From contig NZ_CP065936.1 of the NCBI RefSeq assembly GCF_003367075.2, forward strand, positions 780,001 through 812,000: 32,000 nucleotides of DNA, given 5' to 3'. This DNA is from Cylindrospermopsis raciborskii Cr2010. Its GTDB lineage: Bacteria; Cyanobacteriota; Cyanobacteriia; Cyanobacteriales; Nostocaceae. Each line of letters begins with the position of its first letter. Positions within the stretch are counted from its first letter, which is position 1. Shown here piece by piece: positions 3,846 to 26,845 of this stretch. A program made the position numbers and the translations under genes. A model generated the notes under the pieces. The model saw only the letters and a list, made by a program, of their open reading frames with translations. It ran no database searches and was not told the origin of the DNA.

Positions 3846-3890
3846 CCATCAACCACAATAATTTTTTAGTTTATTTCTTAATCTATTCAA

Positions 3891-4262
3891 TTGTCTATGG
3901 ATCAAATATCGCCCGCTGCTACACACGAAATCAATGCTTACTTGCCATATATTCAGGGTAATAAGCGTAATTTATTACCCTGGGCTATCACCCTCTATCA
4001 AAAGGGTTGTATTGATGGGGAGCGGAAAATAGAAGGTAGTGACAATATTCCCTTCACGGCCAAATGGAATATTAGTACCCTACCTACGGATTTAACTTGT
4101 TGTAGTGTACACTTTCATGCTCCTGGGGAGTTTGCCTATGAAGTAACTATGACTGGCTTTGAATTTGTAGACTTTCTAATTCAAGTCATAGAAAATTATA
4201 AGAGAAATAGAATTGTTGATTTTTCCAAAGCCTTTTACCGTAAACTCCTGTGTCCGGAATAA
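3891..4262 (+). CDS. Hypothetical protein (about 121-123 aa)
   Basis: Clean ORF in the same orientation as its neighbours. The ATG at 3897 is more likely than the TTG at 3891. No motif recognised. Confidence 0.4.
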   Translation: MSMDQISPAATHEINAYLPYIQGNKRNLLPWAITLYQKGCIDGERKIEGSDNIPFTAKWNISTLPTDLTCCSVHFHAPGEFAYEVTMTGFEFVDFLIQVIENYKRNRIVDFSKAFYRKLLCPE

Positions 4263-4268
4263 TGGTTT

Positions 4269-5483: not shown

Positions 5484-5576
5484 GAAAAAAGATAGAAATC
5501 TGTAACTTCATTTGGCCGATTACCTGCAGGCCATTTGGTACAATAGTTGGGTTGTTTAATCCGATAATCTCTATCT

Positions 5577-9618: not shown

Positions 9619-10374
9619 GGCGTTGCATATTTGCGGGATGAATCAACTAAACGCGGGTATTACTTCATACTTTAAATAGTGAAGTAATAATTTAATTGAA
9701 TACCTAAGCATATCTACAGATTTTGAATAGCATAGCGTTTTTCTATGTAGTCGCGCTAAGTAGTGACGTAAACGTGTATTTTCACCCTCTACCCTAGTCA
9801 TATATGTTTTGCTCACAATATGATCCTCTGGCTGAATAAAACTCGGATAAACCCTCCACCCATCAGTAACATAAAAAAAGCATTGCCAGAGTTTAACGAT
9901 GTCCCACAAAGGTTGAAATGCTTGTGAGCTGTGGTCTCCCACAACCCAAGCCAGGATATTTTTACGGAAGTGATTTACTGCTGTCCACAACCATATTTTG
10001 TTTTTTTTTGATCCCACAAAGGTCTCCAACTCATCAAGCTCACCTACCAAGGGTGTTTCCTCAACTGGTGGAGCATCTGGAAGTATGGAACCAATTTGTT
10101 TTAGCCAGTAAATAATAGTTGTATGATGAACGCCTTTATCGCGTTCAATTGCTCTAAATCCCATACCGTTAACATAAGAGCGCAGGCAACTTTGTTTAAC
10201 TTCTTCTGAATAGCCTTTAGGTGGACTATAGACATCGATAAATTGACGACCACAATCAACACAAATGTGATTTTGTTTACCTCGACGTTTGCCATTCTTT
10301 CTGATTTTGGAAGACCCGCAGTTTGGACAATGCACAGTAGATTACCTCAATTCATACCTCTATTATGCAACGCC
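9619..10374 (-). mobile_element. IS1-family insertion sequence (~756 bp)
   Basis: Imperfect terminal inverted repeats: GGCGTTGCATA at 9619-9629 and its complement TATGCAACGCC at 10364-10374, with partial matches extending ~25 bp inward (..ATGAAT..). They enclose a single IS1-type transposase ORF. I could not identify a target-site duplication. Confidence 0.8.
9643..10335 (-). CDS. IS1-family transposase (fused InsAB-type, single ORF)
   Basis: 230 aa with an N-terminal zinc ribbon MHCPNCGSSKIRKNGKRRGKQNHICVDCGRQF, an HTH (GMGFRAIERDKGVHHTTIIYWLKQ) and a DDE-type C-terminal half. An A9 run on the coding strand (T9 at 10001-10009) sits at the InsA/InsB-equivalent junction. Confidence 0.9.
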   Translation of the reverse strand: MHCPNCGSSKIRKNGKRRGKQNHICVDCGRQFIDVYSPPKGYSEEVKQSCLRSYVNGMGFRAIERDKGVHHTTIIYWLKQIGSILPDAPPVEETPLVGELDELETFVGSKKNKIWLWTAVNHFRKNILAWVVGDHSSQAFQPLWDIVKLWQCFFYVTDGWRVYPSFIQPEDHIVSKTYMTRVEGENTRLRHYLARLHRKTLCYSKSVDMLRYSIKLLLHYLKYEVIPAFS

Positions 10375-10487: not shown

Positions 10488-10529
10488 GCTAAGTGGAAAA
10501 ATATCTATCTTTTGATAGATGCTAAGTGG
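10488..10529 (+). promoter_or_regulatory. Symmetric motif upstream of the island operon: GCTAAGTGG, 7-bp inverted repeat, GCTAAGTGG
   Basis: GCTAAGTGG at 10488-10496 and again at 10521-10529 flanks ATCTATC (10503-10509) tttt GATAGAT (10514-10520). A related AAGTGGCTTCCG at 10449-10460 matches AAGTGGCTTTCCG at 10524-10536. Function unproven. Confidence 0.3.
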
Positions 10530-12814
10530 CTTTCCGCTTGTTTACAGTGTCTGTGTTGTATAAAAGGGGGTATTGGGTTAGCATGAAGGATCTGATTATA
10601 GTTAGTGGGCTTAGTGCGGGTGTGGGTATTGGTGTTATCTTGACGGGTATAGCTAACGGACAAGCTAGTATAGGAGTATTAAGTAGCACTGCTGGTGCTA
10701 TTATGGGAGCTTCTGTAGTTCGCAAGTTGGAAGATGATAGAAATCGGGTCACATTAGTTAAGCTTGAGGAACTAAAAAATCGGGAACTGACAAGACAAGA
10801 ATCAACAAACCTAATCCAACAAATAGAAACTCTTAGGCCAACTGTAAAGCAGTTACAACAAGACCGAGAAAGGGAAGAAGAAAATCTAGTAGTCCTGAGA
10901 GGGAAATTAGGTAATCAGCAAGCTGAGTTAGAATTCATTAGAAGAGAATGGGAGCAAAATCAGTCTAGATTGGAAGATATTACCCAAACAGTTGCCAATC
11001 TGACAGCACAAAAACAGGAATTGGAAAATCGCATCAGTGTGATTAATCAAGAGAATCCTCGTTTATTGGAATTGGAAGAACTCAGACGAGCAATTGAACA
11101 ATCTAGAATTGAGAAAAGTGCTTTAGAAGGAAAAATCAGTGGGCTCACCTCTCAACTGGAATCCTTAGATTCCCGCAGACAAGAAACTGTTTCTATTGAA
11201 TTGGAATTACGGGCTAAAGAAATTGATTTAGAGAAGTTGACCACACAAGTTGAAAATCTGAAAAATCAGTCTCAGGAACTAGAACAACGTGCAGCTGATT
11301 TAGAATTGTTGCGTTTTACCTATGATAATATTATTAAACAAAACCAAGATTATGAGGTAAAAGTTAATCAGTTAAGACCAGAAATACAAAGATTAGAATT
11401 AGAAAAACAACAAATTTTACATTCAATCCAAGAAAATCAAAACGAATACCAAAAAGTCCAAGAATTAAGAGAAAAATTACATAGTTTAAGACTGAGTATT
11501 GCAGACGAAAGCTCAAGGTTAAGAGAGGTAGAAACAGAAACACAGACTTGGCAGGGTAAGAAAGCAGCTTTAGAAGAGAGCAATGGTCATTTACAAGAAC
11601 AAAAACAGGAACTTGAAAGAACAATTAGTAGATACAAACATGAAATTGTAGAAATAGAAAATAGTGCGGAATTAGCCTTACAGCCTTTGAAAGAAAAGCT
11701 TTGGAATAATCTACCACAAATAATTAAACCAAGAAAGCAAGAATCAGAATTTATAGCTGATTTTATTACTAGAATTAGGTCCCAAGGATTAACTTTTTCA
11801 ACTAGAACAGTTAATGCTTTCCACACATCTTTAAAAGTACAAGACATTTCTGCCTTAGTAATTTTAGCAGGGATTAGTGGGACGGGTAAAAGTGAACTAC
11901 CGCAAAGATATGCCAATTATCTTGGTGCCCAATTACTAACATTAGCTGTACAACCACGATGGGATTCTCCCCAGGATTTGCAGGGTTTTTATAACTATGT
12001 AGAAAAGAAATTTAAACCAACTGACTTAATGAGAGGACTATATCAATATGGACAGCCAGACATGCAGGATAGAATAGTCATTGTGTTACTGGATGAAATG
12101 AATTTAGCCAGAGTAGAATATTACTTTAGTGAGTTTTTATCTAAATTGGAAAGTCGCCGTAATCATGCGACTTACTTGGAACTTGATGTGGGTAGTTTAC
12201 GAATTCGTGAAAATGAACGTCGTTTACAAATTCCCAACTCCTTTTTATTTGTGGGAACGATGAATGAAGATGAAACTACGCAGACCCTATCTGACAAAGT
12301 GCTAGATAGAGCTAATGTCTTAACCTTTGGTAGACCCCAAAATTTAAAATTGCGTCAGGAGAATCAAGGAGCAGCAGTTCAACATCACGATTCCAGTTAT
12401 CTACCCTATTCTCATTTTCAATCGTGGGTGAAATTGCCCAATCCCAATTCTGAAATAGTTAGGAGCGTCAAATATTTCCTGAACCAAGCTAATGAGGTAA
12501 TGGAAAAAATGGGACACCCTTTTGCCCATCGTGTTTACCAAGCTATTACTCAATATGTGGTTAACTATCCACAAGTGGAGAGTATTGAATCCCCAGCTTT
12601 TAAATTTGCCCTCGCTGATCAATTTGGACAGAAACTGTTGCCCAAATTACGAGGAGTCATGGTTGACGAAGCTCATGAGCAACTAGAAGAAATGGGCAGA
12701 ATTATTGATGATATCAATGATCAACCATTAATTACAGCCTTTGATAAAGCAAGAAAGGGGCGTTACGGACAGTTTACTTGGCAGGGTTTAGTATATGAAG
12801 ATGAAGAGGTATAA
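10526..12814 (+). CDS. McrB-like AAA+ NTPase with an N-terminal glycine-zipper membrane segment and a ~320-aa coiled coil (CnuB-like)
   Basis: Residue numbers follow the 762-aa ORF. A Gly-zipper/TM-like stretch spans residues 24-65 (GLSAGVGIGVILTGIANG...GAIMGASV). Continuous heptad-rich E/Q/L/R sequence runs ~75-395. Walker A is GISGTGKS (449-456), and Walker B is LLDEMNLARVEYYFSEFLS (521-), matching the McrB DEINRA...FGE block. GTMNEDETTQTLSDKVLDRANV (578-) corresponds to the McrB MNTADRS...ALRRRF block. The likely true start is the ATG at 10583 (MKDLIIV), not the GTG at 10526. Confidence 0.85.
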   Translation: MAFRLFTVSVLYKRGYWVSMKDLIIVSGLSAGVGIGVILTGIANGQASIGVLSSTAGAIMGASVVRKLEDDRNRVTLVKLEELKNRELTRQESTNLIQQIETLRPTVKQLQQDREREEENLVVLRGKLGNQQAELEFIRREWEQNQSRLEDITQTVANLTAQKQELENRISVINQENPRLLELEELRRAIEQSRIEKSALEGKISGLTSQLESLDSRRQETVSIELELRAKEIDLEKLTTQVENLKNQSQELEQRAADLELLRFTYDNIIKQNQDYEVKVNQLRPEIQRLELEKQQILHSIQENQNEYQKVQELREKLHSLRLSIADESSRLREVETETQTWQGKKAALEESNGHLQEQKQELERTISRYKHEIVEIENSAELALQPLKEKLWNNLPQIIKPRKQESEFIADFITRIRSQGLTFSTRTVNAFHTSLKVQDISALVILAGISGTGKSELPQRYANYLGAQLLTLAVQPRWDSPQDLQGFYNYVEKKFKPTDLMRGLYQYGQPDMQDRIVIVLLDEMNLARVEYYFSEFLSKLESRRNHATYLELDVGSLRIRENERRLQIPNSFLFVGTMNEDETTQTLSDKVLDRANVLTFGRPQNLKLRQENQGAAVQHHDSSYLPYSHFQSWVKLPNPNSEIVRSVKYFLNQANEVMEKMGHPFAHRVYQAITQYVVNYPQVESIESPAFKFALADQFGQKLLPKLRGVMVDEAHEQLEEMGRIIDDINDQPLITAFDKARKGRYGQFTWQGLVYEDEEV

Positions 12815-14412
12815 TGAAAATATATTCCAATTTATTTGCCTATCTGAATCAGTCTGAACCGATTTCAAATTCGACTGAATTGAGTGCCAGCGATCGTCCA
12901 ATTATTGTTTTGGAACCACATGAAGATTTATCTTTATCGTCTTGGTTTATCACTATCGTTCCGGGAGTTTATCAAATCGGTTTTCCCTATTTACAACCAG
13001 CTAATTTATCCTATTCTGATGAACATAATTGGCAGGATTTAAGGTCTGTATTGAATTTAGAAGTTTCTAAAAAATCTTATAAGTTACCTATCATGGGTCA
13101 AGTTATGGATCTAGAAACTATCAAAGAGGAAGCAGAAATCGAAGAATGGGAAAATAGATTAGGAAATCGTTTGGATAAAACAGTATCCGAATTAATCCGA
13201 TTATTTATTGGCATGTTTACAGACATATTTAGTGGAGAGAATACCGTAAGATTTAATATGGAATCTCATATTTTGCTCAGTCGAGTACCACAAAAGTTAC
13301 AGTCTGTGAACCTTAAAGATGCCAATTTACCAATTGTAATCAGCTTAGATAAAAAATATCAATTGCGCCGAAAGTTAGAATTAATTGGTGACAAGCTACG
13401 TCATCAACTCAGAAGACAAGCAGAATCAATGCCAGTAGGAAAAATTCAAGAAATGGATAGTTATTGTTTACGAGATTATATTCGTAGACCTGGATTAACT
13501 GCTGTAGAAAAAGCTGGTTCAAAACAAGAACTAATGGGGATTCAAAGATATCAAGATTTTAACACTCCTGAAAATAAATTTCTGGTTTATTTTACTCGAT
13601 ATTTACACTTGAGTTGTTTTCAATATGAAAGAAGTGGAGCAGTTCAGTTTAGGGGAGAAGTTAGAAAAATTAGATTAGTAATTGATTTGTTTCAAAGTCA
13701 GCCAATAGTTAATACCATTCAAAATAAAAACTATCAGTTCACAAAACCAAATTATGTGCTACAGCAAAATGCTACATATAAGAGTTTTTATCAGGCATAT
13801 TTAGAATATGTACGCAAGAGGTATGAAAAAGAGAAGTTATGGAGTTTTAGAAATTCCTTATTGGCGGATGTGGTTTATATTTACTTCACAGCGGCGTTAC
13901 TCAAATTTAATCATGTAAATATAAATGCTGGTTCGCTGGTTAAATCTAACTTAATTGCTGATCAAGGATGTTATTTAACTAGAAATCAAAATGTTACAGT
14001 TAGAGTATTTTTACAGAACCAAGTTTATGTATTTGGCTTGCAGAAACCAGCTGAAATTTCTAGAGGTGATTGGGTGTTAACCTTACAAATTCATCAGTTA
14101 GATTCTAGGGAACTAAATTCCACAAAGTTAGAATTTCCCATTTGGGTATTTTGGTATGTTCCCAGTCAGGATATAATTAGTGAAATGCAAAAAAGGAGTA
14201 GAAGTTTTGATTCATTTTCACAGGCAATTGTATTATATTTACAAGAAAATCCATCAACTTATAATTCGAGTTATGGAGAAAATCATAATCTACAAATTTT
14301 ATCTCCAAATATCAGGTTAATGAAGTTACCAGAAAATTTGACGGAGCAGGGATTTGATCCAACCGTTGAAATAATTAACAGAATGATTACCAATTTGCTT
14401 AAAGGCAATTAA
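12814..14412 (+). CDS. McrC/DUF2357-like partner subunit (CnuC-like); PD-(D/E)xK core apparently degenerate
   Basis: The start ATG overlaps the upstream TAA by 1 nt (TAATG), implying translational coupling. DFNTPENKFLVYFTRYL (residues 248-264) matches the (D)TxxNR(f/i)(l/i)K helix of McrC-type proteins (E. coli NEDTLANRIIKSTL, from memory). YKSFYQAYLEYVRKRY matches the McrC LYQKFLYEFCRR block. At the position of the McrC D...IIDAKYY core I read GDWVLTL...PIWVFWYV. Confidence 0.6.
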   Translation: MKIYSNLFAYLNQSEPISNSTELSASDRPIIVLEPHEDLSLSSWFITIVPGVYQIGFPYLQPANLSYSDEHNWQDLRSVLNLEVSKKSYKLPIMGQVMDLETIKEEAEIEEWENRLGNRLDKTVSELIRLFIGMFTDIFSGENTVRFNMESHILLSRVPQKLQSVNLKDANLPIVISLDKKYQLRRKLELIGDKLRHQLRRQAESMPVGKIQEMDSYCLRDYIRRPGLTAVEKAGSKQELMGIQRYQDFNTPENKFLVYFTRYLHLSCFQYERSGAVQFRGEVRKIRLVIDLFQSQPIVNTIQNKNYQFTKPNYVLQQNATYKSFYQAYLEYVRKRYEKEKLWSFRNSLLADVVYIYFTAALLKFNHVNINAGSLVKSNLIADQGCYLTRNQNVTVRVFLQNQVYVFGLQKPAEISRGDWVLTLQIHQLDSRELNSTKLEFPIWVFWYVPSQDIISEMQKRSRSFDSFSQAIVLYLQENPSTYNSSYGENHNLQILSPNIRLMKLPENLTEQGFDPTVEIINRMITNLLKGN

Positions 14413-14418
14413 CATAAT

Positions 14419-16149
14419 ATGACTTATAATGAGAATTACAACATGGACTTTAGTATGAACTTTAATGAACCTAATGAAACGGAAGAAAATAAAACTGAGG
14501 AACTTGATAGAGGCGGATTTAAAAGACAATTAAAAAAATTAATATATACAGCAGCTGAAATTTCACCTGTTAGCCAAGCACAATGGGAAAAACTATTAGA
14601 GATTTACAATTTTGCCTCATTATCCATAGAATTAATCATACAAACGATCTGTAGGAACAACGCATTTTACTCTCAGGAGCGATTATCCTTAAATTTTCCT
14701 TCCATTAGTCCTAGGATTCCCCTGAGTGCAAATCAACAAATAGCATTGGAAATGGCACTTTCAAATAGTCCTATTACTGTGATTTCTGGAACAGGAGCAA
14801 CAGGAAAAACCTCCATTGCTAAGAATCTTGCTCAAGTGGCTATTGATTCTTCTCATAAGGTGTTGATTTTAGCTCATAATTTGGCATCTTTGTCACCCTA
14901 TTATAATCTAACAAATTATCCGCTGGTACTTTCCCAACAGGGAGATTATTATCAAAAGGTGATCAATCGCTTACGTTATGATAATTTAGCTCAAGCTAAA
15001 ATGGATTATTTGCCATTACATTTGCTACCAGATGTAGAGTTATCAAAATTAAGAACACCAGCAAAATTAGAAAGATGGTTGCCAATTATTGAAAATAACA
15101 GCTATCAACAATTAGCAGATATACTAAAGTTAGAGTCAGAATTTCAAAACTTAACTCAAGCAAGACTACACTTATTAGCTTATCGGTTGAAACAACTATT
15201 GCCTTTTTTACAAGAGCAATTAAGATTAAACCAAATTTATAATCACCTCTCACAAGCAGGAATTGAAGAAATTGCCCGTCAACTTTTAGCCAATCCACAA
15301 ATCACTATTACTGGTACTGTTGCTGAGTTCATGCAGGTGGAAAATAGGCTTTTATGGGAAACTAGTTTTGATATAATCATCGTAGAAGAAGCAAATCGTC
15401 TTCATTGGATACAGCTATTATTTTTGGCAGGATTATGCAAAAAACTGGTTTTATTTGGTGAAGATATCCCTCCAAGATATGGACAACCTAAAAAATCCAT
15501 CCCATATCCTTATAACTGTTTGCAATTTAATTGCTTTCAATGGCTGCAAAGTCATTTATCACCGGCTTATGTTTATACATTAAAGGAACAGTTTAGGCTA
15601 CATTCAGCTATGGCTAAAATTGTCTACCCTTCTATTTGTAATCATTGGGTATATAGTCAATCACATTATATTGATAATAGCCTATCTGGAGTCAACCTAT
15701 CGCAAATTAATAGAAGAGTTGTTTGGCAAGATGTATCTGACACAATGGTAGGGGATAAACCCATAGCAGAAAATATGATTAGATTTTTAGAGAAATTAAT
15801 CAGAAATCACGATGGACAAGTTATGTCCGAAATAGGGATGATTACATTTTCTCCAACCCAGACAGATGCTATTAAGGAAATTTTACCTACAATCTCATCC
15901 ATATATCAGAATCAACTATTTGTTGGTACAGCAGGAGAATGGAGTGGAAAGGAAAGGAAAATCATTATGGTTAATTGTTCAGGTAATCCTAAGGATATTT
16001 CAGTAGAGGATATTAATATAGCCCTAACAAGAGCAAAAGATTATCTATTTTTATTTGGTGACTGTGATGTATGGCTAAGATATAATTCTCCCCTTAAAGC
16101 ATTATTGTATCATCCTGCTGTCTCTCAAGAACGTCAAGTTGTCATCTAA
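14419..16149 (+). CDS. Superfamily-1 helicase, UPF1/DNA2-like (AAA_11/AAA_12 type), with deviant catalytic motifs
   Basis: LSANQQIALEMAL...VISGTGATGKTS is the motif Q-like region plus motif I. VLILAHNLASL is motif Ia. FDIIIVEEANRL is motif II, with EE where DE is expected. LVLFGEDIPP is a shortened motif III. GTAGEWSGKERKIIMV is motif V-like, and INIALTRAKDYLFLFGD is motif VI. The gap to the upstream gene is 6 nt. Confidence 0.75.
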   Translation: MTYNENYNMDFSMNFNEPNETEENKTEELDRGGFKRQLKKLIYTAAEISPVSQAQWEKLLEIYNFASLSIELIIQTICRNNAFYSQERLSLNFPSISPRIPLSANQQIALEMALSNSPITVISGTGATGKTSIAKNLAQVAIDSSHKVLILAHNLASLSPYYNLTNYPLVLSQQGDYYQKVINRLRYDNLAQAKMDYLPLHLLPDVELSKLRTPAKLERWLPIIENNSYQQLADILKLESEFQNLTQARLHLLAYRLKQLLPFLQEQLRLNQIYNHLSQAGIEEIARQLLANPQITITGTVAEFMQVENRLLWETSFDIIIVEEANRLHWIQLLFLAGLCKKLVLFGEDIPPRYGQPKKSIPYPYNCLQFNCFQWLQSHLSPAYVYTLKEQFRLHSAMAKIVYPSICNHWVYSQSHYIDNSLSGVNLSQINRRVVWQDVSDTMVGDKPIAENMIRFLEKLIRNHDGQVMSEIGMITFSPTQTDAIKEILPTISSIYQNQLFVGTAGEWSGKERKIIMVNCSGNPKDISVEDINIALTRAKDYLFLFGDCDVWLRYNSPLKALLYHPAVSQERQVVI

Positions 16150-16163
16150 ATCAACCGTGAATT

Positions 16164-17972
16164 ATGAAAATACAAGTTAGATTATCGGGAAAATTTGAAA
16201 GATTGCTATTAAATGCAACACAAACTACATCCGTATCCTTGAATTATTTAATTCAAGAAGTACAAGCGATATCTACCAAATATCAGAGAAGAACACCTGA
16301 ATTGTTACGTCACTCTTTCGGATTAGATTTTATCCCAGAATCGGTTTTAATTAATTTGTGCAAACAAAGTCGTGGTGCTATGAGAGCAAGTGATATTTAC
16401 CAAGTACCAGCTCTGAAATTGCTCAAACATATAGACTCTCAATTAAATGATCGAGATATTCAGGAATATGCTTATAATTTTGTCTGCGAGGAAGGAAGCA
16501 TTAGTTTAACAGCAGAAGATACACAAATTCCTATTTTTTCTGGTGCTGTTTGTGAACAAATGGGAAATTACCTCCTGACCTTACAAGAATCTGATTACCC
16601 AGGGTTAAACTCAGATTTTATCCAACTACTATGGAATACATCTGAAGATTATTGGCACAATTTACCTGATTTGGAAAAAATTAATTATGCTTTGAAATCT
16701 CATGATTTAAATAATTTCTTTCTTAATTTTGACTGTCACCTATCTAATAATAATTTTCAACAAGTAAAAATTTGGATTTCCATAGAGGAATTACCCCTGA
16801 GATTAAGATCTGCTATTACATTCCTAGGATTTAGTAGTAAAATACAGGAAGATTATATATCAAACTTAACTACAGATGTTCAGTTACTAGTTGATCAATA
16901 TGTGTCAACATACCAACATCAACCCATAGGGTTACCTGATGAAATACAACCAAATCCCTCACATGGGTCTCAAATTAGTTTTGTAATCGATAGTGGTAAA
17001 AATCGGAGAACTATCCACCAAATTATTGACCAAGCAAGTGAGTTTTTACTAGTTTCTAGTTATATTATTGAGGATGAGAACTTAACGGAATTAATTTGTC
17101 ACAAGTCCGCAAAATTACCTGTTTATATATTAACAGATTTAAACAATGAACTTTTAGACCGCATTGATGAACAAATATCAGATTCTATGGTCATACCCGA
17201 ACAATATCAAATAACCGATGAACGTAAAAAATCTTGTTTGAGAATGGTGCTGAGTGAGAATATACCTATTCGCAGTGGTGCTTTTCATTTAAAAACCTAT
17301 ATTTCGGAAAAAGCTGCTTATCTGGGATCCTGTAATCTGACTCGTCGCAGTTTGGACTTTAATACAGAAGCTGGAATAGTGGTTAGTAATAATTCTCAGC
17401 ATGAACACCTAATTAGTTATTTCCAAAACTTTTGGTATAATCACAGTAAAAATGAGGTTATACCTGATGCTAATAGTGATGGGTTTAGGTTGCGCTCCGT
17501 TATTTATCCTCATCAAAGAAAATATAGAAAAAATCATGACAACTTTTTGACATCAGCACAATATCAGCAAGATTTGATAGAAAACCTGCGCAATTTTCCC
17601 CAAAATGAACAGATCAGAATTTATACTCGTAGTTTTCAACCATCTAGGGAAATAGCAGGTTATCTCGGTGCATTAAATACGAGGGTTTTTATTGATTCGA
17701 GTGCGTCTATGAGATATGAAAACTTCTATAGGAAGAGCTTTAATGTTCAGAATATTCGCAAGATTGATAATCTCCATGCTAAGATTACTATCTTAGGGGA
17801 TAAAATAGCTTACATTGGGGGAATTAATTTTAATTTCAATATTGATTTTATTTTCCATAATAATCCTAACTTGAATCATTCAAATTTACATGATTTGATG
17901 TATAAAACTACCAATAAAATGGAAATTAACGAAATCATTGATAGACTAGAAAATCTAAATTTAAAAATCTAA
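16164..17972 (+). CDS. Phospholipase-D-family (double HKD) nuclease with an uncharacterised ~270-aa N-terminal region
   Basis: The first HKD motif is FHLKTYISEKAAYLGSCNLT (H375, K377, GSxN 388-391). The second is LHAKITILGDKIAYIGGINF (H538, K540). Each is preceded by the usual beta-alpha PLD scaffold (EFLLVSSYIIED...LPVYILTD). The gap to the upstream gene is 14 nt. Confidence 0.8.
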   Translation: MKIQVRLSGKFERLLLNATQTTSVSLNYLIQEVQAISTKYQRRTPELLRHSFGLDFIPESVLINLCKQSRGAMRASDIYQVPALKLLKHIDSQLNDRDIQEYAYNFVCEEGSISLTAEDTQIPIFSGAVCEQMGNYLLTLQESDYPGLNSDFIQLLWNTSEDYWHNLPDLEKINYALKSHDLNNFFLNFDCHLSNNNFQQVKIWISIEELPLRLRSAITFLGFSSKIQEDYISNLTTDVQLLVDQYVSTYQHQPIGLPDEIQPNPSHGSQISFVIDSGKNRRTIHQIIDQASEFLLVSSYIIEDENLTELICHKSAKLPVYILTDLNNELLDRIDEQISDSMVIPEQYQITDERKKSCLRMVLSENIPIRSGAFHLKTYISEKAAYLGSCNLTRRSLDFNTEAGIVVSNNSQHEHLISYFQNFWYNHSKNEVIPDANSDGFRLRSVIYPHQRKYRKNHDNFLTSAQYQQDLIENLRNFPQNEQIRIYTRSFQPSREIAGYLGALNTRVFIDSSASMRYENFYRKSFNVQNIRKIDNLHAKITILGDKIAYIGGINFNFNIDFIFHNNPNLNHSNLHDLMYKTTNKMEINEIIDRLENLNLKI

Positions 17973-17995
17973 ATTTATTAAAGTAATTTAGAGAG

Positions 17996-18108
17996 TAAGT
18001 GGGTGGATGGAATTAAATATGAGAGGAACGTAGGTTGGGTTGAAGTATGAAACCCAACGCCCGCATGGGTTTAACCCATCCTACAAATAATTATGCCTCC
18101 CCACATAA
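17996..18108. repeat. Nested repeats: copy 2 of the 8918-type palindromic element, interrupted by a ~61-bp two-hairpin MITE-like element (18030-18090)
   Basis: The outer arms GTAAGTGGGTGGATGGAATTAAATATGAGAG (from 17996) and TTATGCCTCCCCACATAA (18091-18108) match 8918-8962. The inner GTAGGTTGGGTTGAAGTATGAAACCCAACGCCCGCATGGGTTTAACCCATCCTACAAATAA contains the stems GTTGGGTT/AACCCAAC and ATGGGTT/AACCCAT, closed by GTAGG/CCTAC. Confidence 0.75.
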
Positions 18109-18164
18109 TTTAGACCAGGTTCAAAAAAACACAAAAATTTAAAATCAGTAAGGAACAGGAAAAT

Positions 18165-20594
18165 ATGCCTAGATTATTTAATTTACAATCTTATTTTGAT
18201 GCTTGTGAGTATACTTTTTTAGTGAAGGAGGAATCTGATATAGTTCCTCAATCGAGTAGAGACTACAAATCGTTTCTGGATAAATATTCTAATTATCCTT
18301 ATTTAACTGCACCAATAGGTAATAATTTTCTTGCTTCTGAGTTAACTATTAATTCCCAGGAGTTAAATTTCCTATCTATGGGAACTGAACTAAGGGGAGG
18401 AGATAGGGAGCGTTTATTTATCATTAGTGATACTTTAGATTTAATGACCCTGAGTATGAGGTATGGTCTGGGATCTACGGACGGTTATTTATATAGCAGT
18501 GCTTATCATTATTGGAGTCACCGGGAAGCAATAGTTGAAAGACACCTATATAACCCCTCCCCCAAACCATTTAAACCACTAGTATTTATTGATTTCGATA
18601 GTTTTGATATTTCTAGTTTACTTCCAGTTACCTTTATACAACCAGAAAATAGTCCCTACCAAATTCCTATTCTTGATACTAGACATCAGATATCTTTACC
18701 TAGTGTATGCAATTCTCAAGCAACATATTTACGGGTATGTTATTCCATAGCTGAGTTTTTATTACAGCAGCAATTCCCTCAATTATCTACAAATCAGGAA
18801 AGCATTAACCACCTGGGTGATTATTTACGCAAGATTAATTTTTTCAGATTTGTTCAATCTCAAATTGCTCAAGAGTCTATAAGTTTGATTATCGAAGTAG
18901 ACCATGACCACCAAATTTTTTATAAACGAATCACTGTACTTACACTCGATATTGCTAATATTGTTTATCAGCAAATTCAACCGGATATTAACCTTGTCAA
19001 TCAACTTGCTATCCAGTATCCCCAATACCAGTTTGTCTTAATCAGTCAATATAACATTTTTGAGAAAATTTCCTACCTACATTTATCTAACTTTATTTGT
19101 TTCACACCTCAAATCCAAAGGTTTTCAGAGATATGGATCCAAAAAAATCAGCTAGGGTTTCCCTTGTTTGGAATTTATTTAGATCGAATTGAGTTCGCTA
19201 TAGCTATTGATAACCAGGAAGTATGGATTGAGTTATCTGATGAAAAAGATGCTATTTCTTATGAAGGTAAGCTTACAGTCTTAACAGGAAGAATAGCTAG
19301 TAGAGATCAAGACTTTGTGAGAATTCCCCGTGGTAGAAATAGTGCTAATTTACCAATTAGAGTCAATGGTTCTGATTACTCTATCAATGGTGTTCCCCAA
19401 GATTACAGAATTGATATTGAAAACTATCACAATCATCACAGCAACCAAAATGATCAAGAAGTCTTAGTACAAATTCTGTTTTATCTACAACCAGGATCTT
19501 TTCCTAGACTGGAAGTTAAAGACTTGCAAAACCAATATACTATTAAAACTAGTTTGGTCAACAGGGTTAATGTCTCTTATAGCTACATCCCCCCCTCCAG
19601 AATCAGTGAAAATCGTCAACAAAGATCTCTGTCTCAAATTAGACGTTTGAGCGCAAGTGTAGCTCTTGGAAATTTTATGAATTCTTTAAATCAAATCTCT
19701 CAAGTAAATGTCATTAATAGTCGAACTTACGAACAACTAAGTACAAGTTTCAGACAAGCTTATCAACACTTAGGACAGAAACCGAATCCTGATTTGCTAC
19801 AATTTATCGAGGTTTCATCCATTGAGGATGAGGAGATTGTTACAGGGTTGAAACGAAAATTAACAAATTCTCAATTTGACACAGTAATTGATTTTATGAT
19901 TACCACGACTAATCAATATCTAAGACAGAATAGACCTGTAATTTATCACCAGAAAAATTTGCTGATTAATGCAATAATTCTTACTGGTAAATTATATCAA
20001 TTCTCACAATTTATATGTTCACGAGATATGTCAGATAGTTTATTTTCTGACTCCCAGGTGAAATTAATTATTGACAATAGTGGAAGGGACAAAAAAGTGT
20101 CAAATGAGTATTTACAGTGTTTATCAAGAATTGCTGTAACTGAACAACTACAACAAAGATATTTTCAATTATTTGACTTACAATATACATCTGAAACAAG
20201 TCAATACTTGTGGGGGTATGGCAGAATTTTACTTTGGTATTATGATTTTAATAATCCTTCTAACACCTTATTAACTTCTCGTCTATACCTGGAACATTTT
20301 ACAAAAATTATCAACTATTTACTAACTAGACATTATAAAGATTTTGAGTTCCAATACAAACAGAATGCTTTTTTATCTCTTATTTACTTGCTAACTTTTT
20401 GCGCTTATGATGCAAATTTCTGCCGCCCAAATTCAGCAGAATTTCACCTAGCCTTGAGAGTTATTGACAAATTTCAAAATGATAGGATTATTTTGAAAAC
20501 AATTAGTTCTGAAAGACCATTAAATCACTATTTTCAGGAGTTGATTGAAGGACGTTCAACAGAAGATGGCATAGCTAATCTGCTTCAGGGTTAA
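18165..20594 (+). CDS. Large orphan protein (809 aa), function unknown; probable fifth gene of the island
   Basis: Long uninterrupted ORF with an ATG start preceded by AAGGAACAGGAA. Its AT-rich codon usage matches the four upstream genes. I recognise no NTPase, nuclease or protease motif. The C-terminal ~300 aa look alpha-helical and repeat-like. Confidence 0.7.
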   Translation: MPRLFNLQSYFDACEYTFLVKEESDIVPQSSRDYKSFLDKYSNYPYLTAPIGNNFLASELTINSQELNFLSMGTELRGGDRERLFIISDTLDLMTLSMRYGLGSTDGYLYSSAYHYWSHREAIVERHLYNPSPKPFKPLVFIDFDSFDISSLLPVTFIQPENSPYQIPILDTRHQISLPSVCNSQATYLRVCYSIAEFLLQQQFPQLSTNQESINHLGDYLRKINFFRFVQSQIAQESISLIIEVDHDHQIFYKRITVLTLDIANIVYQQIQPDINLVNQLAIQYPQYQFVLISQYNIFEKISYLHLSNFICFTPQIQRFSEIWIQKNQLGFPLFGIYLDRIEFAIAIDNQEVWIELSDEKDAISYEGKLTVLTGRIASRDQDFVRIPRGRNSANLPIRVNGSDYSINGVPQDYRIDIENYHNHHSNQNDQEVLVQILFYLQPGSFPRLEVKDLQNQYTIKTSLVNRVNVSYSYIPPSRISENRQQRSLSQIRRLSASVALGNFMNSLNQISQVNVINSRTYEQLSTSFRQAYQHLGQKPNPDLLQFIEVSSIEDEEIVTGLKRKLTNSQFDTVIDFMITTTNQYLRQNRPVIYHQKNLLINAIILTGKLYQFSQFICSRDMSDSLFSDSQVKLIIDNSGRDKKVSNEYLQCLSRIAVTEQLQQRYFQLFDLQYTSETSQYLWGYGRILLWYYDFNNPSNTLLTSRLYLEHFTKIINYLLTRHYKDFEFQYKQNAFLSLIYLLTFCAYDANFCRPNSAEFHLALRVIDKFQNDRIILKTISSERPLNHYFQELIEGRSTEDGIANLLQG

Positions 20595-20607
20595 ATTCTC
20601 CTCTCAA

Positions 20608-20663
20608 TTATTTGTAGGATGGGTTAAACCCATGCGGGCGTTGGGTTTCATACTTCAACCTAC
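20608..20663. repeat. Inverted copy of the 18030-18090 MITE-like element
   Basis: TTATTTGTAGGATGGGTTAAACCCATGCGGGCGTTGGGTTTCATACTTCAACCTAC equals the reverse complement of 18030-18090 except for a 5-nt indel (CAACC) near one end. Confidence 0.8.
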
Positions 20664-20743: not shown

Positions 20744-21340
20744 TTAGCCTAAATTTGCAGCAGCAAATTCCCAGTTGGCTAAATTGTCCAAGAAGTTCTT
20801 GATGAATGCTGGACGCGCATTTCTAAAATCTATATAGTAAGCGTGTTCCCATACATCAATGGTTAAGAGTGGCTTTTTACCGTGTACTAAAGGGTTTTCG
20901 GCATTAGGTGTTTTGATTACCTTGAGTGTACCACCATCATCAACTAACCAAGCCCAACCACTGCCGAATTGAGTTGCTGCTGCTGTGGAAAATTCTTCTT
21001 TGAATTTGTCAAAGCTACCAAAGTCTTGACTAATTCTGTCTGCTAATACTCCGGTAGGGACACCGCCACCTGCAGGCTTAAGCGAATTCCAAAAGAAAGT
21101 ATGGTTCCAAACCTGTGCTGCATTGTTGAAAACCCCAGCTTTAGATGCATCTTTGAAGGAAATTTGAATTACTTCTTCAAGAGACTTATCCGCCAAATCT
21201 GTACCTTCAGTGAGCTTGTTTAGGTTATCCACGTATGCTTTGTGATGCTTACCATAATGGTATTCAAAGGTTTCAGCTTTCATGCCGTAACTTTCTAAAG
21301 CGTTAAAGTCGTATGGTAAAGGAAGCTGTGTAAATGCCAT
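20744..21340 (-). CDS. sodB: Iron superoxide dismutase
   Basis: MAFTQLPLPYDFNALE...FEYHYGKHHKAYVDNLN...AQVWNHTFFW...GSGWAWL...DVWEHAYYIDF shows the classic Fe/Mn-SOD metal ligands, and the AQVWNHTFFW context is Fe-type. Confidence 0.95.
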   Translation of the reverse strand: MAFTQLPLPYDFNALESYGMKAETFEYHYGKHHKAYVDNLNKLTEGTDLADKSLEEVIQISFKDASKAGVFNNAAQVWNHTFFWNSLKPAGGGVPTGVLADRISQDFGSFDKFKEEFSTAAATQFGSGWAWLVDDGGTLKVIKTPNAENPLVHGKKPLLTIDVWEHAYYIDFRNARPAFIKNFLDNLANWEFAAANLG

Positions 21341-21523
21341 TTTTTCAAATCCTCTCTTTATGGTTTTCCCGCGTGAGCTATTGTCCCACCTTGGCTAGAG
21401 AAATCCCAAGCTGTGTGGCCACTCGCACCAACTATAACAGAAATTATCAAAAAATACAATAACAATACAGGGTTGTAGAGAGTGAACACCAAATTTAATA
21501 AATTTGAAAGGATTCATGGAGTA

Positions 21524-21551
21524 TTGACAAGTGTGGCATAGGATGTATAAG
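21524..21551 (+). promoter_or_regulatory. Near-consensus sigma70-type promoter facing away from sodB
   Basis: TTGACA (21524-21529), a 16-nt spacer, then TATAAG (21546-21551), with TG just upstream. Sequence match only; no expression data. Confidence 0.35.
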
Positions 21552-21879
21552 ATATACACCATAAGGTGAATTAATGAAATGTAACGCAGTTTATCGATTG
21601 GATTGTAAACAGGCGATTGTGAAGCACTTGCACTCGCGTGCAGGATGCTATTAGTCCAGGTATAGGTCACTGTAGTCATAATTACTCACATGAGTATTAG
21701 TAAAACAATTATAGATGGAACGACTGAAAAGATGATCGCCTTTGTTTCAATATTTAAAACTGAAGATCTACCCTAGGATAGATGCGGAGATAAATTTTGA
21801 TGTATTATAGTGCTTTTGTTTACATTTTATGTAAGGGTTTTGTCTAAGGCTATAATTCCTTCCACTAGCTGAGAATACC

Positions 21880-22482
21880 TTGACTCTTTTACCTAAAAAG
21901 TACCAAGAAACAACATGTATTACCATTAAAAAAGGAAATGTTATTGTGAGAGTCTTGTTAATTTCTACCTTCCTTCTTTCCATAGGGATATTTAATCCAG
22001 CACTTGGTGGTTATAATTATGAGTTTGAGTATGATAGATTTAGTGATTCTAAGAAAGCTACTTTCCAGGCAAATATTGGCAGCGAGTGTAAATTACTTGT
22101 TTCTAAAAAGGGAGAACTGAGATATTGTAGTTTTTCCTACGAGGATCCAAACGAAGGAGGAGTTTACCCAGTGATAGCTGTAGGTACAAGCTCGGATGAT
22201 TGGGATATCACCGACAACGGAAAACCAACATTTTTAGATGATATAAATACCATAATTACCTATAATGATAACACAACATCCAGATTGAAATTGAAGGCTT
22301 CCACCCTAGGACAAGAGATAACTCAGTATAGCATTTTTGCCGAGGTGGTCATGGTTCATCTTGGTCAAATTTTAGATGAGTTAACTAACATTAGGCAAAT
22401 CGAATTTAAATATGGTTCAAATGAGTATTTATTCATTATTGACCAAAAATTACTAAAAAAGACACTGAACTTTGAAAAGTAG
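21880..22482 (+). CDS. Hypothetical secreted protein
   Basis: 200-aa ORF. The likely start is the GTG at 21946, after AAAGGA, which gives a signal-peptide-like N-terminus (M)RVLLISTFLLSIGIFNPALG. No known motif. Confidence 0.5.
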   Translation: MTLLPKKYQETTCITIKKGNVIVRVLLISTFLLSIGIFNPALGGYNYEFEYDRFSDSKKATFQANIGSECKLLVSKKGELRYCSFSYEDPNEGGVYPVIAVGTSSDDWDITDNGKPTFLDDINTIITYNDNTTSRLKLKASTLGQEITQYSIFAEVVMVHLGQILDELTNIRQIEFKYGSNEYLFIIDQKLLKKTLNFEK

Positions 22483-22513
22483 ATCTTCCTTCTCATATTA
22501 GTGAGCCAAAAGT

Positions 22514-22960
22514 ATGTGTCAATTTCTCATCAACGCTTTTCTTCTTCCGACGAACTTGATGATTTCAAATGTTGCGGAATACTGTTCTCCTAGTGAGTAC
22601 GTAAAAAACCAGGAGATGCAAGGTAAAATCAGCTCCGGACAGATTATCAGTCAATTGATAGCTCAAAATAAAAAAACCAGAATCAGATTTGCTAAGGGTA
22701 GTCTTTGTGGTTTTTATTCTGGAAATATCAGTCAAGGTAAAGAATTTGTACTTAAACTGGCGGGTGGACAACTATTTACAAGTAAGAATACAGGACAGGG
22801 GTCTATTCATCATATATACGTAATTGGACCAAAAGGACGCATTACGCCAAGGAGAGAAGCCACGAATACTCTTAGTTACTACATTCCCGTTTCCGGGGAC
22901 TATAGTGTCTATCTTAGGTCAGTGAATTCCTATAGTAATGTGGAGTTTTGTGCTTATTAG
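22514..22960 (+). CDS. Hypothetical protein
   Basis: 148-aa ORF in the same orientation as its neighbours. The start is uncertain because several internal Met codons exist. No motif recognised. Confidence 0.4.
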   Translation: MCQFLINAFLLPTNLMISNVAEYCSPSEYVKNQEMQGKISSGQIISQLIAQNKKTRIRFAKGSLCGFYSGNISQGKEFVLKLAGGQLFTSKNTGQGSIHHIYVIGPKGRITPRREATNTLSYYIPVSGDYSVYLRSVNSYSNVEFCAY

Positions 22961-23092: not shown

Positions 23093-24397
23093 TTGGGTAA
23101 AATTGCACAAAAATCAACTAACTACCGAGTTAAGCGAGCAAAAAATAATAGCGTAACCGATGCCAAGTATTTAATACTTATCCTACTAAATAGTATAGTG
23201 GTGGGAGCAATTACCGGTTGGTTTTTCATGACTATTAAACCAGTCAAAAAATTCCCTACTACGCTACCAACTGGTCAAATTAGGAAAGAGGATTCATTGT
23301 TAAAATCCTCAATCAATTCACCACCGGTTAATTCTCCTACTCCAGCGCAATTAACCACACCCCCCATTTCTAATGGATTTAGTAGTTCTCCATTGCCAGA
23401 CAACACATTAGCTCCTAAAGATGTTAATCTTATCAATGGACTAGAAGGGTTAGAAGGTACAATAGAAAAGTTAAAAAATATTAAGGAAATACAAGATCCT
23501 GAACAGGGATTAGAACTCACAACCAAGCTAATAAATGATTTGAGAAAGTCTGAAAGATTAATAGAAACAGCCAAAAAGAACTATCCTGAATCATCAATTA
23601 ATCAACATTTAGATACTATCAAAACTTACCAGGAAATGGTTATTAAATGGCAGTACTATTTTCTGAGCAAACGGCAATTATCAAATCAGGTCATTCAATC
23701 CAATCAACCATTTAAACCGAATAAAAAAAGATCATTTATTAACCTTTCTCTTCAAAATAAAACCAATTTTCTTGGAGCTGTAAAAACAAAATTTATTTCT
23801 TTGACATTTGATGATGGGCCAACCCTGGAGTACACGCCAAAAATTGTTGCTATATTGCAAAAACATCAAGTAAAAGCAACTTTTTTTGTGGTCGGTAAAA
23901 GAGTAGCAAAAAACTGTGAAATTCTGAAAATGATTTATCAAAATGGTCATGAAATTGCGAATCATAGCTATACTCATCCAGTATTTACCCAAATTTCCCA
24001 ACCACAACAACGTAAAGAAATTATTGATACTCAAGAAAGTATAAACAAGTGTTTGGGTTTAGAATATCCTACTCAATGGTTCCGTGCTCCCTATGGACAT
24101 CAAAATGCACAGGTAGTAGAAACTATTGCGCAATTAGGGTTAAATAATGCCCAGTGGGTTGTTGACACTAATGATTGGCGAAAAACTAGTACAGTCGCCT
24201 CCATTAGCGATTCAGTAATTAAGGTCAAAAAACCGGGTGTGGTTTTAATGCATGATGGTTTTATGACTAATCCTAACCGAATTCATCCCCAAGAAAGCTC
24301 TAGTCGTCAAAACACAGTTGATGCTCTAGAACAAATAATTGTCAAACTAAAGAGTAGGGGATTTGAATTCGCTACTCTTAGTGAAACTATCAAGTAA
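23093..24397 (+). CDS. Membrane-anchored polysaccharide deacetylase (NodB homology domain, CE4)
   Basis: The TTG start is preceded by AAAAAGGAGAG. There is an N-terminal TM segment (ILILLNSIVVGAITGWFFM), a Pro/Ser-rich linker, then the NodB motifs TFDDGP, HSYTHP and RAPYG. Confidence 0.85.
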   Translation: MGKIAQKSTNYRVKRAKNNSVTDAKYLILILLNSIVVGAITGWFFMTIKPVKKFPTTLPTGQIRKEDSLLKSSINSPPVNSPTPAQLTTPPISNGFSSSPLPDNTLAPKDVNLINGLEGLEGTIEKLKNIKEIQDPEQGLELTTKLINDLRKSERLIETAKKNYPESSINQHLDTIKTYQEMVIKWQYYFLSKRQLSNQVIQSNQPFKPNKKRSFINLSLQNKTNFLGAVKTKFISLTFDDGPTLEYTPKIVAILQKHQVKATFFVVGKRVAKNCEILKMIYQNGHEIANHSYTHPVFTQISQPQQRKEIIDTQESINKCLGLEYPTQWFRAPYGHQNAQVVETIAQLGLNNAQWVVDTNDWRKTSTVASISDSVIKVKKPGVVLMHDGFMTNPNRIHPQESSSRQNTVDALEQIIVKLKSRGFEFATLSETIK

Positions 24398-25711
24398 AAC
24401 ATTTAAAAAAGTCAGGAGTTGCAGATGATTAGTTTACTCATTAACCGCTATGAAATTATAAATCCCCTAGGATCTGGAGGATTTGGAGAAACCTTCTTAG
24501 CTCGCGATACTCAAATGCCCTCACAACGTCTAGTTGTCATTAAACATCTCAAGCCCGCTCTTCAAAATAGTCATAGTTCTACTGAATTAATTGAAAACCT
24601 TTTTCAAAAAGAGGCAGCAGTATTAGAAGAGTTAGGAAACCATTGTTCTCAAATTCCTCAACTTTACAGCTATTTTTCAGAAGAGGGAGAGTTTTATCTA
24701 GTTCAAGAATATATAGAGGGCAAAAACTTGTCCCAGGTAGGACAAATTAAACCAGAACAGGCTACAGTCATTTTGTCTTCTTTGTTGAATACCCTGAAAT
24801 ATGTCCACAGCAAAAATATTATCCACAGGGATATTAAACCAGAAAATATTATTCTTCGAGATAGTGATAGACTACCTGTATTAATTGATTTTGGTGCTGT
24901 CAAGGAAACTATGGGCGTTGTTACCTTGGGGTCCGGTTCCACAGTTAGTTCAGTGGTAGTGGGAACCAGAGGATTTATGGCTCCCGAACAAACCGCAGGA
25001 AGACCTGTTTTTAGTACGGATTTATATGCCTTGGGGTTAACAATTATTTATGCTTTAACTCAAAAGCTACCCATCGAATTTAGCGTTAGTCAACTAACAG
25101 GAGAAATAGATTGGACAAGTTATGTGCCTAATTTAGATTCAAAGCTAGTACAAGTATTGAATAAGTCTATTAAGATAGATTTAGGGAGCAGATATTTGAC
25201 AGCGGAAGCAATGTATTCTGATTTACATACTTCCTCCGGCATACCACTGTCTACCGTACTAACACCCAAAAGTCAGGAAGATACACTAGTTGTATCACCA
25301 GGTGGCGAAAGTAAAAATCTGATTTCCAGTTTAACCAGTGTAGTATTTAATAAAGTAAAGTCCCAAAACAAGGACACAAAAGTTCCCGTTGACTACACCA
25401 GAGTCGCAGTAATTGTATTAAGTATTTTAGGCTTAGCAGGAGGTTTTTTTGTAACACAACAAATGTTGGAAGCACAGGAAAGGGCGGCGCAATTAGAAAG
25501 GGAAAAAAAGGAAGCAGAGGAGAAAAAAGAAATAGCAGAAAAAGAAAGACTACGAGCTCAACAAAAAGCACTAGAAGCAGAGAATCTCAGACAAACAGCA
25601 GAACAGGAAAGATTAGCAGTCGAGAAAAGACAAGCACAAGAAGAAAGGAGGCGATTAGCGGCTGAGTCGCGACAAGCCAGATTAGAACGCCGAAGACTAG
25701 CCGCAGAAAGA
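24340..25711 (+). repeat. Segmental duplication, copy A (deacetylase 3' end plus the first ~430 codons of kinase 1)
   Basis: It aligns to 26846-28211. From 24421 to 25711 the offset is exactly 2500 bp with no indels and about 39 substitutions by my line-by-line count (~97% identity). Confidence 0.9.
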
Positions 25712-25957: not shown

Positions 25958-25998
25958 CAGTGGGGTTAATAAATTTCAACTGACAACTAATAAATAAA

Positions 25999-26844: not shown

Positions 26845-26845
26845 T

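Follow-up and report, generated by a model that had tools for sequence, protein, structure and literature searches.

The coiled-coil nuclease tandems (CoCoNuTs) form a coiled-coil clade in the NxD branch of McrB GTPases, in which the McrC nuclease is often dead and another nuclease is present (PMC11090510). Their signature is a shortening of the McrB motif NxxD to NxD, usually with E or D as the next residue (PMC11090510). One of their subtypes, Type III-C, was catalogued by comparative genomics (Bell, Sahakyan, Makarova, Wolf, Koonin 2024, eLife 13:RP94800; PMC11090510) and is described there as 'primarily found in ... Cyanobacteriota'. Here we analyse a window of 32,000 nucleotides from the cyanobacterium Cylindrospermopsis raciborskii Cr2010 (contig NZ_CP065936.1, positions 780,001 to 812,000 of the forward strand, numbered from 1 in what follows). 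It contains a cassette of five genes, cnuB-cnuC-cnuH-cnuE-cnuD, which by its match to the published description is very probably an intact, McrBC-derived Type III-C CoCoNuT operon.

In that description the Type III-C CnuB consists of a coiled coil and a GTPase, and CnuC of an Ig-like domain, DUF2357 and an inactivated PD-(D/E)xK domain; CnuC proteins that lack the PD-(D/E)xK catalytic motif and keep the fold are reported for Types II, III-B and III-C (PMC11090510). CnuH of Types II and III is a UPF1-like superfamily 1 (SF1) helicase with a large helical insertion after Walker A, and the Type III-C CnuE has a distorted, elongated winged helix-turn-helix, then a coiled coil, then a pair of PLD domains (PMC11090510). 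CnuD is encoded in Type III-C by a separate gene and carries Hsp70-like nucleotide-binding and substrate-binding domains (NBD and SBD) and HEAT-like repeats, and the type has no TerY-P triad (VWA, PP2C and kinase-Zn ribbon; PMC11090510). Bell et al. inferred RNA targeting from the UPF1-like affinities together with the Hsp70-like CnuD (PMC11090510). The only CoCoNuT with reported phage protection is the Type II system Obs, which protects Pseudomonas aeruginosa against PP7 and LeviOr01, which are RNA phages, and the DNA phage MPK7 (bioRxiv 10.64898/2026.04.06.716636).

A coiled-coil McrB-like NTPase and an McrC homologue without a conserved nuclease triad

A preliminary description of the window, drawn from the sequence alone, had read the first gene as an McrB-type AAA+ NTPase and the second as its McrC/DUF2357-like partner with a degenerate nuclease, and these readings were borne out. 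For comparison, 30 homologous loci were gathered with a CnuD profile, 29 of them cyanobacterial by title and one labelled Candidatus Obscuribacterales; full-length homologues of all five genes are present in 19 of the 30. In CnuB, whose residues are counted here from the GTG codon at 10526 (M20 = ATG 10583), the Pfam family AAA_5 was found at residues 445-595 (E 6.5e-9), and the protein matched the PADLOC candidate model PDC-M26A with an E value of 2.7e-43. When a profile of the AAA+ half was aligned with E. coli McrB in hhalign (probability 85.8%, E 5.4e-6, 198 columns), the Walker A (GISGTGKS/GPPGVGKT) and Walker B (LLDEMN/IIDEIN) motifs paired up and the signature MNEDE of CnuB fell opposite MNTAD. 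Walker A is invariant in the 19 full-length CnuB homologues, and K455, the residue singled out earlier, is correctly positioned within it. The MNEDE signature (GTMNEDE[T/S]TQ) is kept in 19 of 19, and reads as the one-residue-shorter 'NxD' form followed by Glu.

Ahead of the AAA+ domain, residues ~67-395 match solely the coiled-coil parts of SMC/Rad50/JetC/DndD models and coiled-coil PDB chains, and when the full-length CnuB profile was searched against the PDB such coiled-coil matches drowned everything else. The family searches detected no reader domain on CnuB, just a hydrophobic segment and the coiled coil before the AAA+ domain. Among the homologues CnuB ranges from 704 to 1025 aa with the Walker A and NxD motifs constant (examples of the length variation are loci L012 at 1416-4493, L004 at 3012-5501 and L005 at 2527-5013). 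The extra length probably sits in the coiled coil, which might then act as a 'ruler' or scaffold relevant to function. The start of the protein is probably the ATG at 10583, giving 743 aa and leaving the GTG at 10526 likely unused, since this start fits both the N-termini of the homologues and the 743-aa CnuB called in the sister genomes.

The McrC N-terminal domain DUF2357 lies above its Pfam cut-off in CnuC (E 7e-7, 29.1 bits against 23.3). [quoted passage not shown] Searched against the PDB with Foldseek, the model gave a lone match with E<1e-3, in which the whole chain of CnuC aligns with the Thermococcus gammatolerans McrC (6ut7_G, E 1.2e-4, prob 0.98); a comparison of folds was needed here, hhalign of CnuC with E. 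coli McrC having returned nothing. Within the C-terminal 160 residues of the 41 sequences D419 is the single invariant acidic residue and no Lys or Glu is invariant or near-invariant, so the PD-(D/E)xK triad is not conserved. Taken alone, this domain produced weak matches to PD-(D/E)xK nucleases (E 0.1-0.4).

A UPF1-like helicase and a double-HKD nuclease

The third and fourth genes had been described as a UPF1-like SF1 helicase and a double-HKD PLD nuclease, and family and profile searches agree with both. CnuH matches the Pfam families AAA_12 (E 1.5e-10), AAA_11 and AAA_30, and its profile found a 5'-3' RNA helicase-like protein, DNA2, IGHMBP2/SMUBP-2, UPF1 and SEN1 in the PDB (E 8e-16 to 3e-8). 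Invariant in the homologue alignment are G129, the Walker A lysine K130, T131, D318 and the motif VI arginine R538, and the 188 residues between K130 and D318 make up a stretch to which no PDB helicase aligns. In CnuE, PLDc_2 was found over two stretches (E 7.4e-20) and PLDc at 536-558. Among defence models it matches DrmC/DpdK; its PDB matches, with E 3e-7 to 1e-4, are the nicking-joining enzyme of a poxvirus and the 5'-3' exonucleases PLD3 and PLD4. H375, K377, H538 and K540 are invariant, and the catalytic positions previously assigned in the two proteins (K130 of CnuH, H375 and H538 of CnuE) are correct. Scans with Pfam, NCBIfam and PADLOC gave no family match for the N-terminal ~280 residues of CnuE.

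The first ~30 residues of the CnuH open reading frame (ORF), encoded at 14419-14520 and rich in Asn and Glu, have no counterpart in other genera, where alignments begin at query positions 29-34. The gene is called as 576 or 564 aa in sister genomes and its start codon is uncertain as these calls differ. It lies beside cnuC in 23 of the 30 loci. One sister strain (L038, GCA_001676585.1, LYXA01000001.1) has cnuH split by a DDE_Tnp_1 transposase gene into pieces of 508 and 86 aa (15192-18077), which from its sequence is a predicted natural knockout of the system.

These two proteins bear most directly on the nature of the target. RNA is the favoured target in our analysis because of the argument of Bell et al. 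and the UPF1/SEN1/IGHMBP2 affinities of CnuH; the PLD and DNA2 affinities keep DNA under consideration. It is possible, if unlikely, that the same components restrict DNA as a type IV or McrBC-like system, in which the helicase-PLD pair would degrade invading and possibly modified DNA. There are DNA enzymes among the nucleases of the PLD family, DrmC and DpdK from DISARM and Dpd, both DNA-directed systems, are the best defence-model matches, the best PDB match of CnuE is a DNA nicking-joining enzyme, and DNA2 is among the best matches of CnuH; the Type II system Obs also blocks a DNA phage (bioRxiv 10.64898/2026.04.06.716636). However CnuB carries a coiled coil only and no reader for DNA or modified bases, and the McrC nuclease is not conserved. 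The helicase affinities and the Hsp70-like CnuD behind the published RNA inference likewise speak against a DNA target, although they are not decisive.

The 809-aa protein CnuD

The product of the fifth gene had been described as a protein with no recognisable motif and as a large orphan. The first part stands: CnuD has zero matches in Pfam, NCBIfam and PADLOC, its profile found just weak coiled-coil noise in the PDB, and a Pfam scan of its most distant relatives for CnuC-CnuD fusions or HSP70 domains returned none. Its orphan status does not, as the AF2 model matches the Hsp70 family. The model, built from 35 sequences (pLDDT 77.6), comprises a poorly defined N-terminus, an alpha/beta part at ~110-330, a beta part at ~335-466 and a helical part at 477-809. 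The top 50 Foldseek matches in the PDB are all to the Hsp70 family (DnaK, BiP/GRP78, Sse1/Hsp110, Ssb, Ssz1, mortalin and Hsc70), two of them being ciliary-complex entries not titled as Hsp70, and the best (4b9q_A, E 1.8e-7, prob 1.0) has more than 500 co-linear columns across NBD and SBD. On this model the 809-aa protein is CnuD, with a predicted degenerate Hsp70-like NBD/SBD region (~110-466) and a helical C-terminal domain (477-809). The CnuD family has likewise been recognised in the literature by distant structural similarity.

A word-indexed search with CnuD returned 54 clusters, every one annotated 'hypothetical', and an exhaustive search of 1.84 billion proteins gave 113 representatives, ~40 of them full length and the set essentially cyanobacterial. 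The gene is directly downstream of cnuE in all but one of the 30 loci. The model thereby independently confirms as the Hsp70-like CnuD a family whose database entries, as far as seen, all carry the label 'hypothetical'.

Assignment to Type III-C

The assignment to Type III-C follows from the combination of an NxD CnuB, a dead CnuC, CnuH, a CnuE with two PLD domains, CnuD, the lack of TerY-P and a host in the Cyanobacteriota. The features of the type found at the locus are thus the NxD signature, the coiled coil, a DUF2357 partner in an overlapping frame, the UPF1-like helicase, the double PLD, the separate CnuD and the cyanobacterial host. No TerY-P triad was found within or beside the cassette by Pfam and neighbour scan, and no flanking gene is kept across the 30 loci.

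Several results weigh against this assignment. A profile of the AAA+ part of CnuB alone found no McrB chain in the PDB, and the CnuC profile had no PDB matches, so that McrC was not reached by sequence. Alignment of CnuD with E. coli DnaK by hhalign returned nothing, and the TM-scores between CnuD and Hsp70 proteins are low (0.16-0.28), their likeness being structural only. We know of no Type III-C system that has been experimentally tested, and target, trigger and subunit roles are inferred.

The preliminary description had seen in the locus a coiled-coil, McrBC-derived accessory cassette of the CoCoNuT class, which domains, folds and conservation support, and had thought the combination of its parts atypical and undescribed. 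This second view did not hold up: three of the four features considered unusual (the dead McrC, the standalone PLD with an N-domain and the large orphan) are the published definition of Type III-C. The outcome that it had itself named as the alternative applies instead, namely that the locus matches a catalogued subtype gene for gene and is real but not novel. We accordingly regard a new CoCoNuT subtype, defined by anchor, standalone PLD, dead McrC and large orphan, as highly improbable and unsupported, because the set CnuB-CnuC-CnuH-CnuE-CnuD is that of the published Type III-C; an orphan with an Hsp70-like fold is what is expected of CnuD, and the phylum fits. In favour of a new subtype it can be said that PADLOC v2 recognises CnuB alone, through PDC-M26A, and that the hydrophobic start of CnuB has no published counterpart, as considered below. 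Since the system type was already defined in 2024, this Type III-C locus represents a good candidate for testing and not a discovery or a new kind of biology. It offers an intact and compact 10-kb example on the chromosome of a bloom-forming toxic lineage (Cylindrospermopsis/Raphidiopsis, Nostocales), with clear catalytic residues for mutant controls.

The hydrophobic N-terminus of CnuB

Each of the 19 full-length CnuB proteins starts with a pair of hydrophobic stretches rich in Gly, Ala and Ser, after which come a charged segment and then the coiled coil. The consensus is DWxIVGxxTxGVGxTxS...GLLGSTTGAxxGAxxSSK, with the motif LLGSTTGAxxGA kept, and the maximum Kyte-Doolittle value over 19 residues is 2.12 in this CnuB and 1.3-2.2 in the other 18 full-length homologues. 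A membrane segment with a Gly-zipper had been proposed here; a Gly-rich, hydrophobic N-terminus does exist and is conserved, and its location in the membrane is only inferred. Residues 20-66 may reasonably be seen as a candidate membrane anchor, a helical hairpin whose two ends would lie in the cytoplasm.

Since it is conserved across the clade, the hydrophobic N-terminus belongs to the family as a whole, and this locus is not peculiar in having it. The N-terminus of Type II and III CnuB is given as 'only coiled-coils', with no hydrophobic segment for Type III-C, and transmembrane helices are mentioned in the text of that paper for the CoCoPALM clade and ShdA only (PMC11090510). This Gly-rich hydrophobic hairpin is the sole detail of the locus that is absent from the text, and it can be cited for a new subtype; however the full-length relatives that all share it are the cyanobacterial clade of the paper, which makes it at most a detail that went un-noted. 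As such it represents a small, testable extension of the published architecture.

That the Type III-C clade is membrane-tethered through this glycine-zipper-like hairpin of ~45 residues strikes us, from the sequences, as rather unlikely. If it were true, an McrBC-derived machine would stand at the cytoplasmic membrane, where it could survey incoming nucleic acid. Glycine zippers are typical of pore-forming segments, and alternatively oligomerisation of CnuB could damage the membrane as an abortive-infection output beside the PLD nuclease.

A hydrophobic segment followed by a coiled coil also recalls the CoCoPALM type, in which an NxD McrB is fused to an FtsB-like transmembrane segment and coiled coil and is tied to pilus-assembly and signal-peptidase genes, and the window does contain a signal peptidase S26 gene. 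That gene however is 8 kb off on the other strand with unrelated genes between, and it is not co-conserved in the 30 loci; CnuH, CnuE and CnuD moreover define Type III, and profile and family searches with CnuC found no coiled-coil family or PDB match. With no such gene kept beside the cassette and no coiled-coil match for CnuC, we rejected both the CoCoPALM reading, which has hardly any probability left, and the link to the signal peptidase.

Conservation and accessory nature of the cassette

Homologues of the five proteins have identities of 35-99%, and since each of the five has homologues in this range the observation is not due to chance. Wherever the genes are detectable in the 30 loci they follow the order B-C-H-E-D on one strand. 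Of the loci whose upstream flank is long enough, about three quarters have the same five genes in the same order and on the same strand, and the remainder are partly degraded. The cassette occurs in the orders Nostocales, Oscillatoriales and Pleurocapsales (Anabaena, Dolichospermum, Nodularia, Calothrix, Tolypothrix, Trichormus, Mastigocoleus, Arthrospira/Limnospira, Planktothrix and a member of the Pleurocapsales); the closest homologues are from Cylindrospermopsis/Raphidiopsis, and all named homologues are cyanobacterial. The 30 loci were searched for a sixth gene conserved with the cassette and for a defence system linked to it; neither was found, and the flanks differ between genera. The five genes are thus co-conserved in cyanobacteria in unrelated surroundings, which settles the neighbourhood check that had been recommended for the locus.

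At closer range, all eight sister genomes of Cylindrospermopsis/Raphidiopsis with an identical superoxide dismutase (SOD) protein have the cassette beside the SOD gene, one of them with cnuH interrupted by an insertion sequence (IS). Other strains carry a variant cassette of 56-67% identity at a different genomic site, so that C. raciborskii strains have two distinct Type III-C lineages. In Raphidiopsis brookii D9 (L001, ACYB01000019.1, 1480-11323) this divergent variant, there of 56-68% identity, has ORFs of 357 aa for cnuC, 360 aa for cnuH and 392 aa for cnuE and appears to be decaying as all three are shortened. Differing sites, IS disruption, decay and variants together fit a mobile accessory defence module and argue against a housekeeping role.

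The constancy of the site can also be turned the other way, since the eight sister genomes keep the cassette in place, its flanks are housekeeping genes, as had been recognised from the start, and no adjacent defence genes were seen in the window. On these grounds the cassette could be a host module for RNA or protein quality control or for stress, with an McrBC-like motor and no part in defence. We consider this improbable, as the distribution is patchy (~113 CnuD representatives in 1.84 billion proteins), neighbourhoods are unrelated across genera, the GC content is lower than that of the surroundings, and there are differences between strains in the form of an IS disruption, decay and divergent variants. 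Phage resistance is moreover conferred by a related CoCoNuT (bioRxiv 10.64898/2026.04.06.716636).

Genomic setting of the cassette

The coordinates of the features are given in Table 1. The layout of five ORFs, all on the plus strand between 10526 and 20594, was reproduced exactly as first described, with a 1-nt overlap between cnuB and cnuC followed by gaps of 6 nt, 14 nt and 192 bp. An AT-rich island had also been reported: the contrast is real, and its magnitude (~27-35% GC against ~40-52%) was overstated, 1-kb windows giving 31-38% within the cassette and 37-46% in the surroundings.

Table 1 Features of the cassette and of its surroundings in the window
Feature	Position	Strand	Description
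Signal peptidase S26 gene	1577-2257	opposite to cassette
IS1-family transposase	9643-10335	-	230-aa DDE_Tnp_IS1 ORF, ~150 bp upstream of cnuB
cnuB	10526-12814	+	762 aa ORF
Two Gly/Ala/Ser-rich hydrophobic stretches of CnuB	10583-10723	+	residues 20-66, LIIVSGLSAGVGIGVILTGI ... IGVLSSTAGAIMGASVV
Long coiled coil of CnuB	10724-11710	+	residues ~67-395
cnuC	12814-14412	+	532 aa ORF
cnuH	14419-16149	+	576 aa ORF
cnuE	16164-17972	+	602 aa ORF
55-nt repeat, perfect inverted copies	18038-18092 and 20606-20660		bracket cnuD
cnuD	18165-20594	+	809 aa ORF
Fe/Mn superoxide dismutase (SOD)	20744-21340	-	directly downstream, converges on the 3' end of the cassette

The IS1 element noticed at the border of the island is present and spans 9619-10374, bounded by imperfect inverted ends of 25 nt (9619-9643 and 10350-10374), and it may affect the promoter of the operon. 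A scan of the locus for promoters and terminators gave a signal no better than shuffled sequence, and an Rfam search of the window had zero matches. Repeats resembling miniature inverted-repeat transposable elements (MITEs) had been placed at the borders of the island and were said to fill the 192-bp gap. The repeats exist, although the 55-nt copies enclose the fifth gene only and the gap holds one of them. The element folds into a hairpin (dG -22.8 kcal/mol, z -2.4). Four of the eight sister genomes have both copies and the other four the copy between cnuD and the SOD gene alone. Outside Cylindrospermopsis/Raphidiopsis the distance from cnuE to cnuD is ~3-20 bp, so the 192-bp gap is explained by a lineage-specific insertion of the element, which, as a stem-loop, could provide a terminator or a stabiliser, or could enable inversion of cnuD.

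Elsewhere in the window a 167-aa ORF at 5577-6080 matches the DprA-like family DNA_processg_A below threshold (E 6.5e-6; 25.9 bits, with the cut-off at 29.6) and may be a truncated or divergent member of the DprA/Smf family. Between the SOD gene and a polysaccharide deacetylase gene (21395-22960) lie three ORFs without a Pfam match, of 94 aa on the minus strand and of 200 and 148 aa on the plus strand, the latter two being kept in some sister genomes (L036, L038 and L039). They are followed on the plus strand by a cell-wall-like cluster at 23093-28544 (polysaccharide deacetylase, one Ser/Thr kinase that carries an SH3 domain, the D-Ala-D-Ala carboxypeptidase VanY and another Ser/Thr kinase) that is rearranged across sister strains and is not co-conserved with the cassette. 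The two kinases (24.4-28.5 kb) were considered as a TerY-P and rejected, as they lie beyond the SOD gene in the company of the VanY and polysaccharide deacetylase genes and share no conservation with the cassette.

A proposed mechanism

Knowledge of McrBC, UPF1-like helicases and PLD nucleases, together with the published account (PMC11090510), suggests how a Type III-C system of this kind might work. CnuB would form an AAA+ ring driven by NTP, with CnuC in control of the hydrolysis, and CnuC itself, being nuclease-dead, would serve as an adaptor or nucleic-acid binder. The coiled coil of ~330 residues in CnuB could provide a scaffold that recruits CnuH, CnuE and CnuD, and the Gly-rich hydrophobic hairpin may keep the complex at the membrane. 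Recognition of the target, which would probably be RNA, either viral or aberrant, and might take place at the ribosome, could fall to CnuD, to the dead nuclease domain of CnuC or to both. CnuH would then translocate along the single strand and unwind it, and CnuE, the only predicted active nuclease, would degrade the strand with one active site made from its two HKD halves. The outcome would be protection from phage, either directly or by abortive infection.

Comparison with known systems

Canonical McrBC, as represented by EcoKMcrBC of E. coli K-12, resembles the locus in pairing an AAA+ NTPase that bears the McrB signature region with an McrC-family partner encoded in overlapping frames. It differs in that its McrB shows NxxD and has an N-terminal reader of methylcytosine DNA, and the PD-(D/E)xK endonuclease of its McrC is active; the locus by contrast has a coiled coil for the reader, NxD, a dead nuclease and three additional proteins. 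With no modified-DNA reader on CnuB and no conserved triad in CnuC, a canonical McrBC type IV enzyme was rejected as an identity for the locus. In PADLOC-DB v2 CnuB matches the candidate system PDC-M26 through PDC-M26A, and no other protein of the locus matches a model of that system.

Among the CoCoNuTs, the seven-gene Type II system Obs of Pseudomonas aeruginosa PMM16 shares CnuB and CnuC with a dead nuclease, CnuH and CnuE, but has a HEPN RNase effector, SmpB-like and RNase-toxin-like domains on CnuH and a TerY-P triad, and lacks CnuD. Type III-B, found mainly in Alphaproteobacteria, is alike in CnuB and CnuC, the UPF1-like helicase, the separate CnuD and the lack of TerY-P; its effector however is a Vsr-like PD-(D/E)xK domain fused to the helicase and it has a separate coiled-coil CnuA, whereas the locus has a standalone double-PLD protein and no CnuA. 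The closest described system is Type III-C (PMC11090510). Its text leaves the hydrophobic hairpin of CnuB unmentioned; all five components are alike, TerY-P is lacking in both, the phylum is the same and no tested feature contradicts the match.

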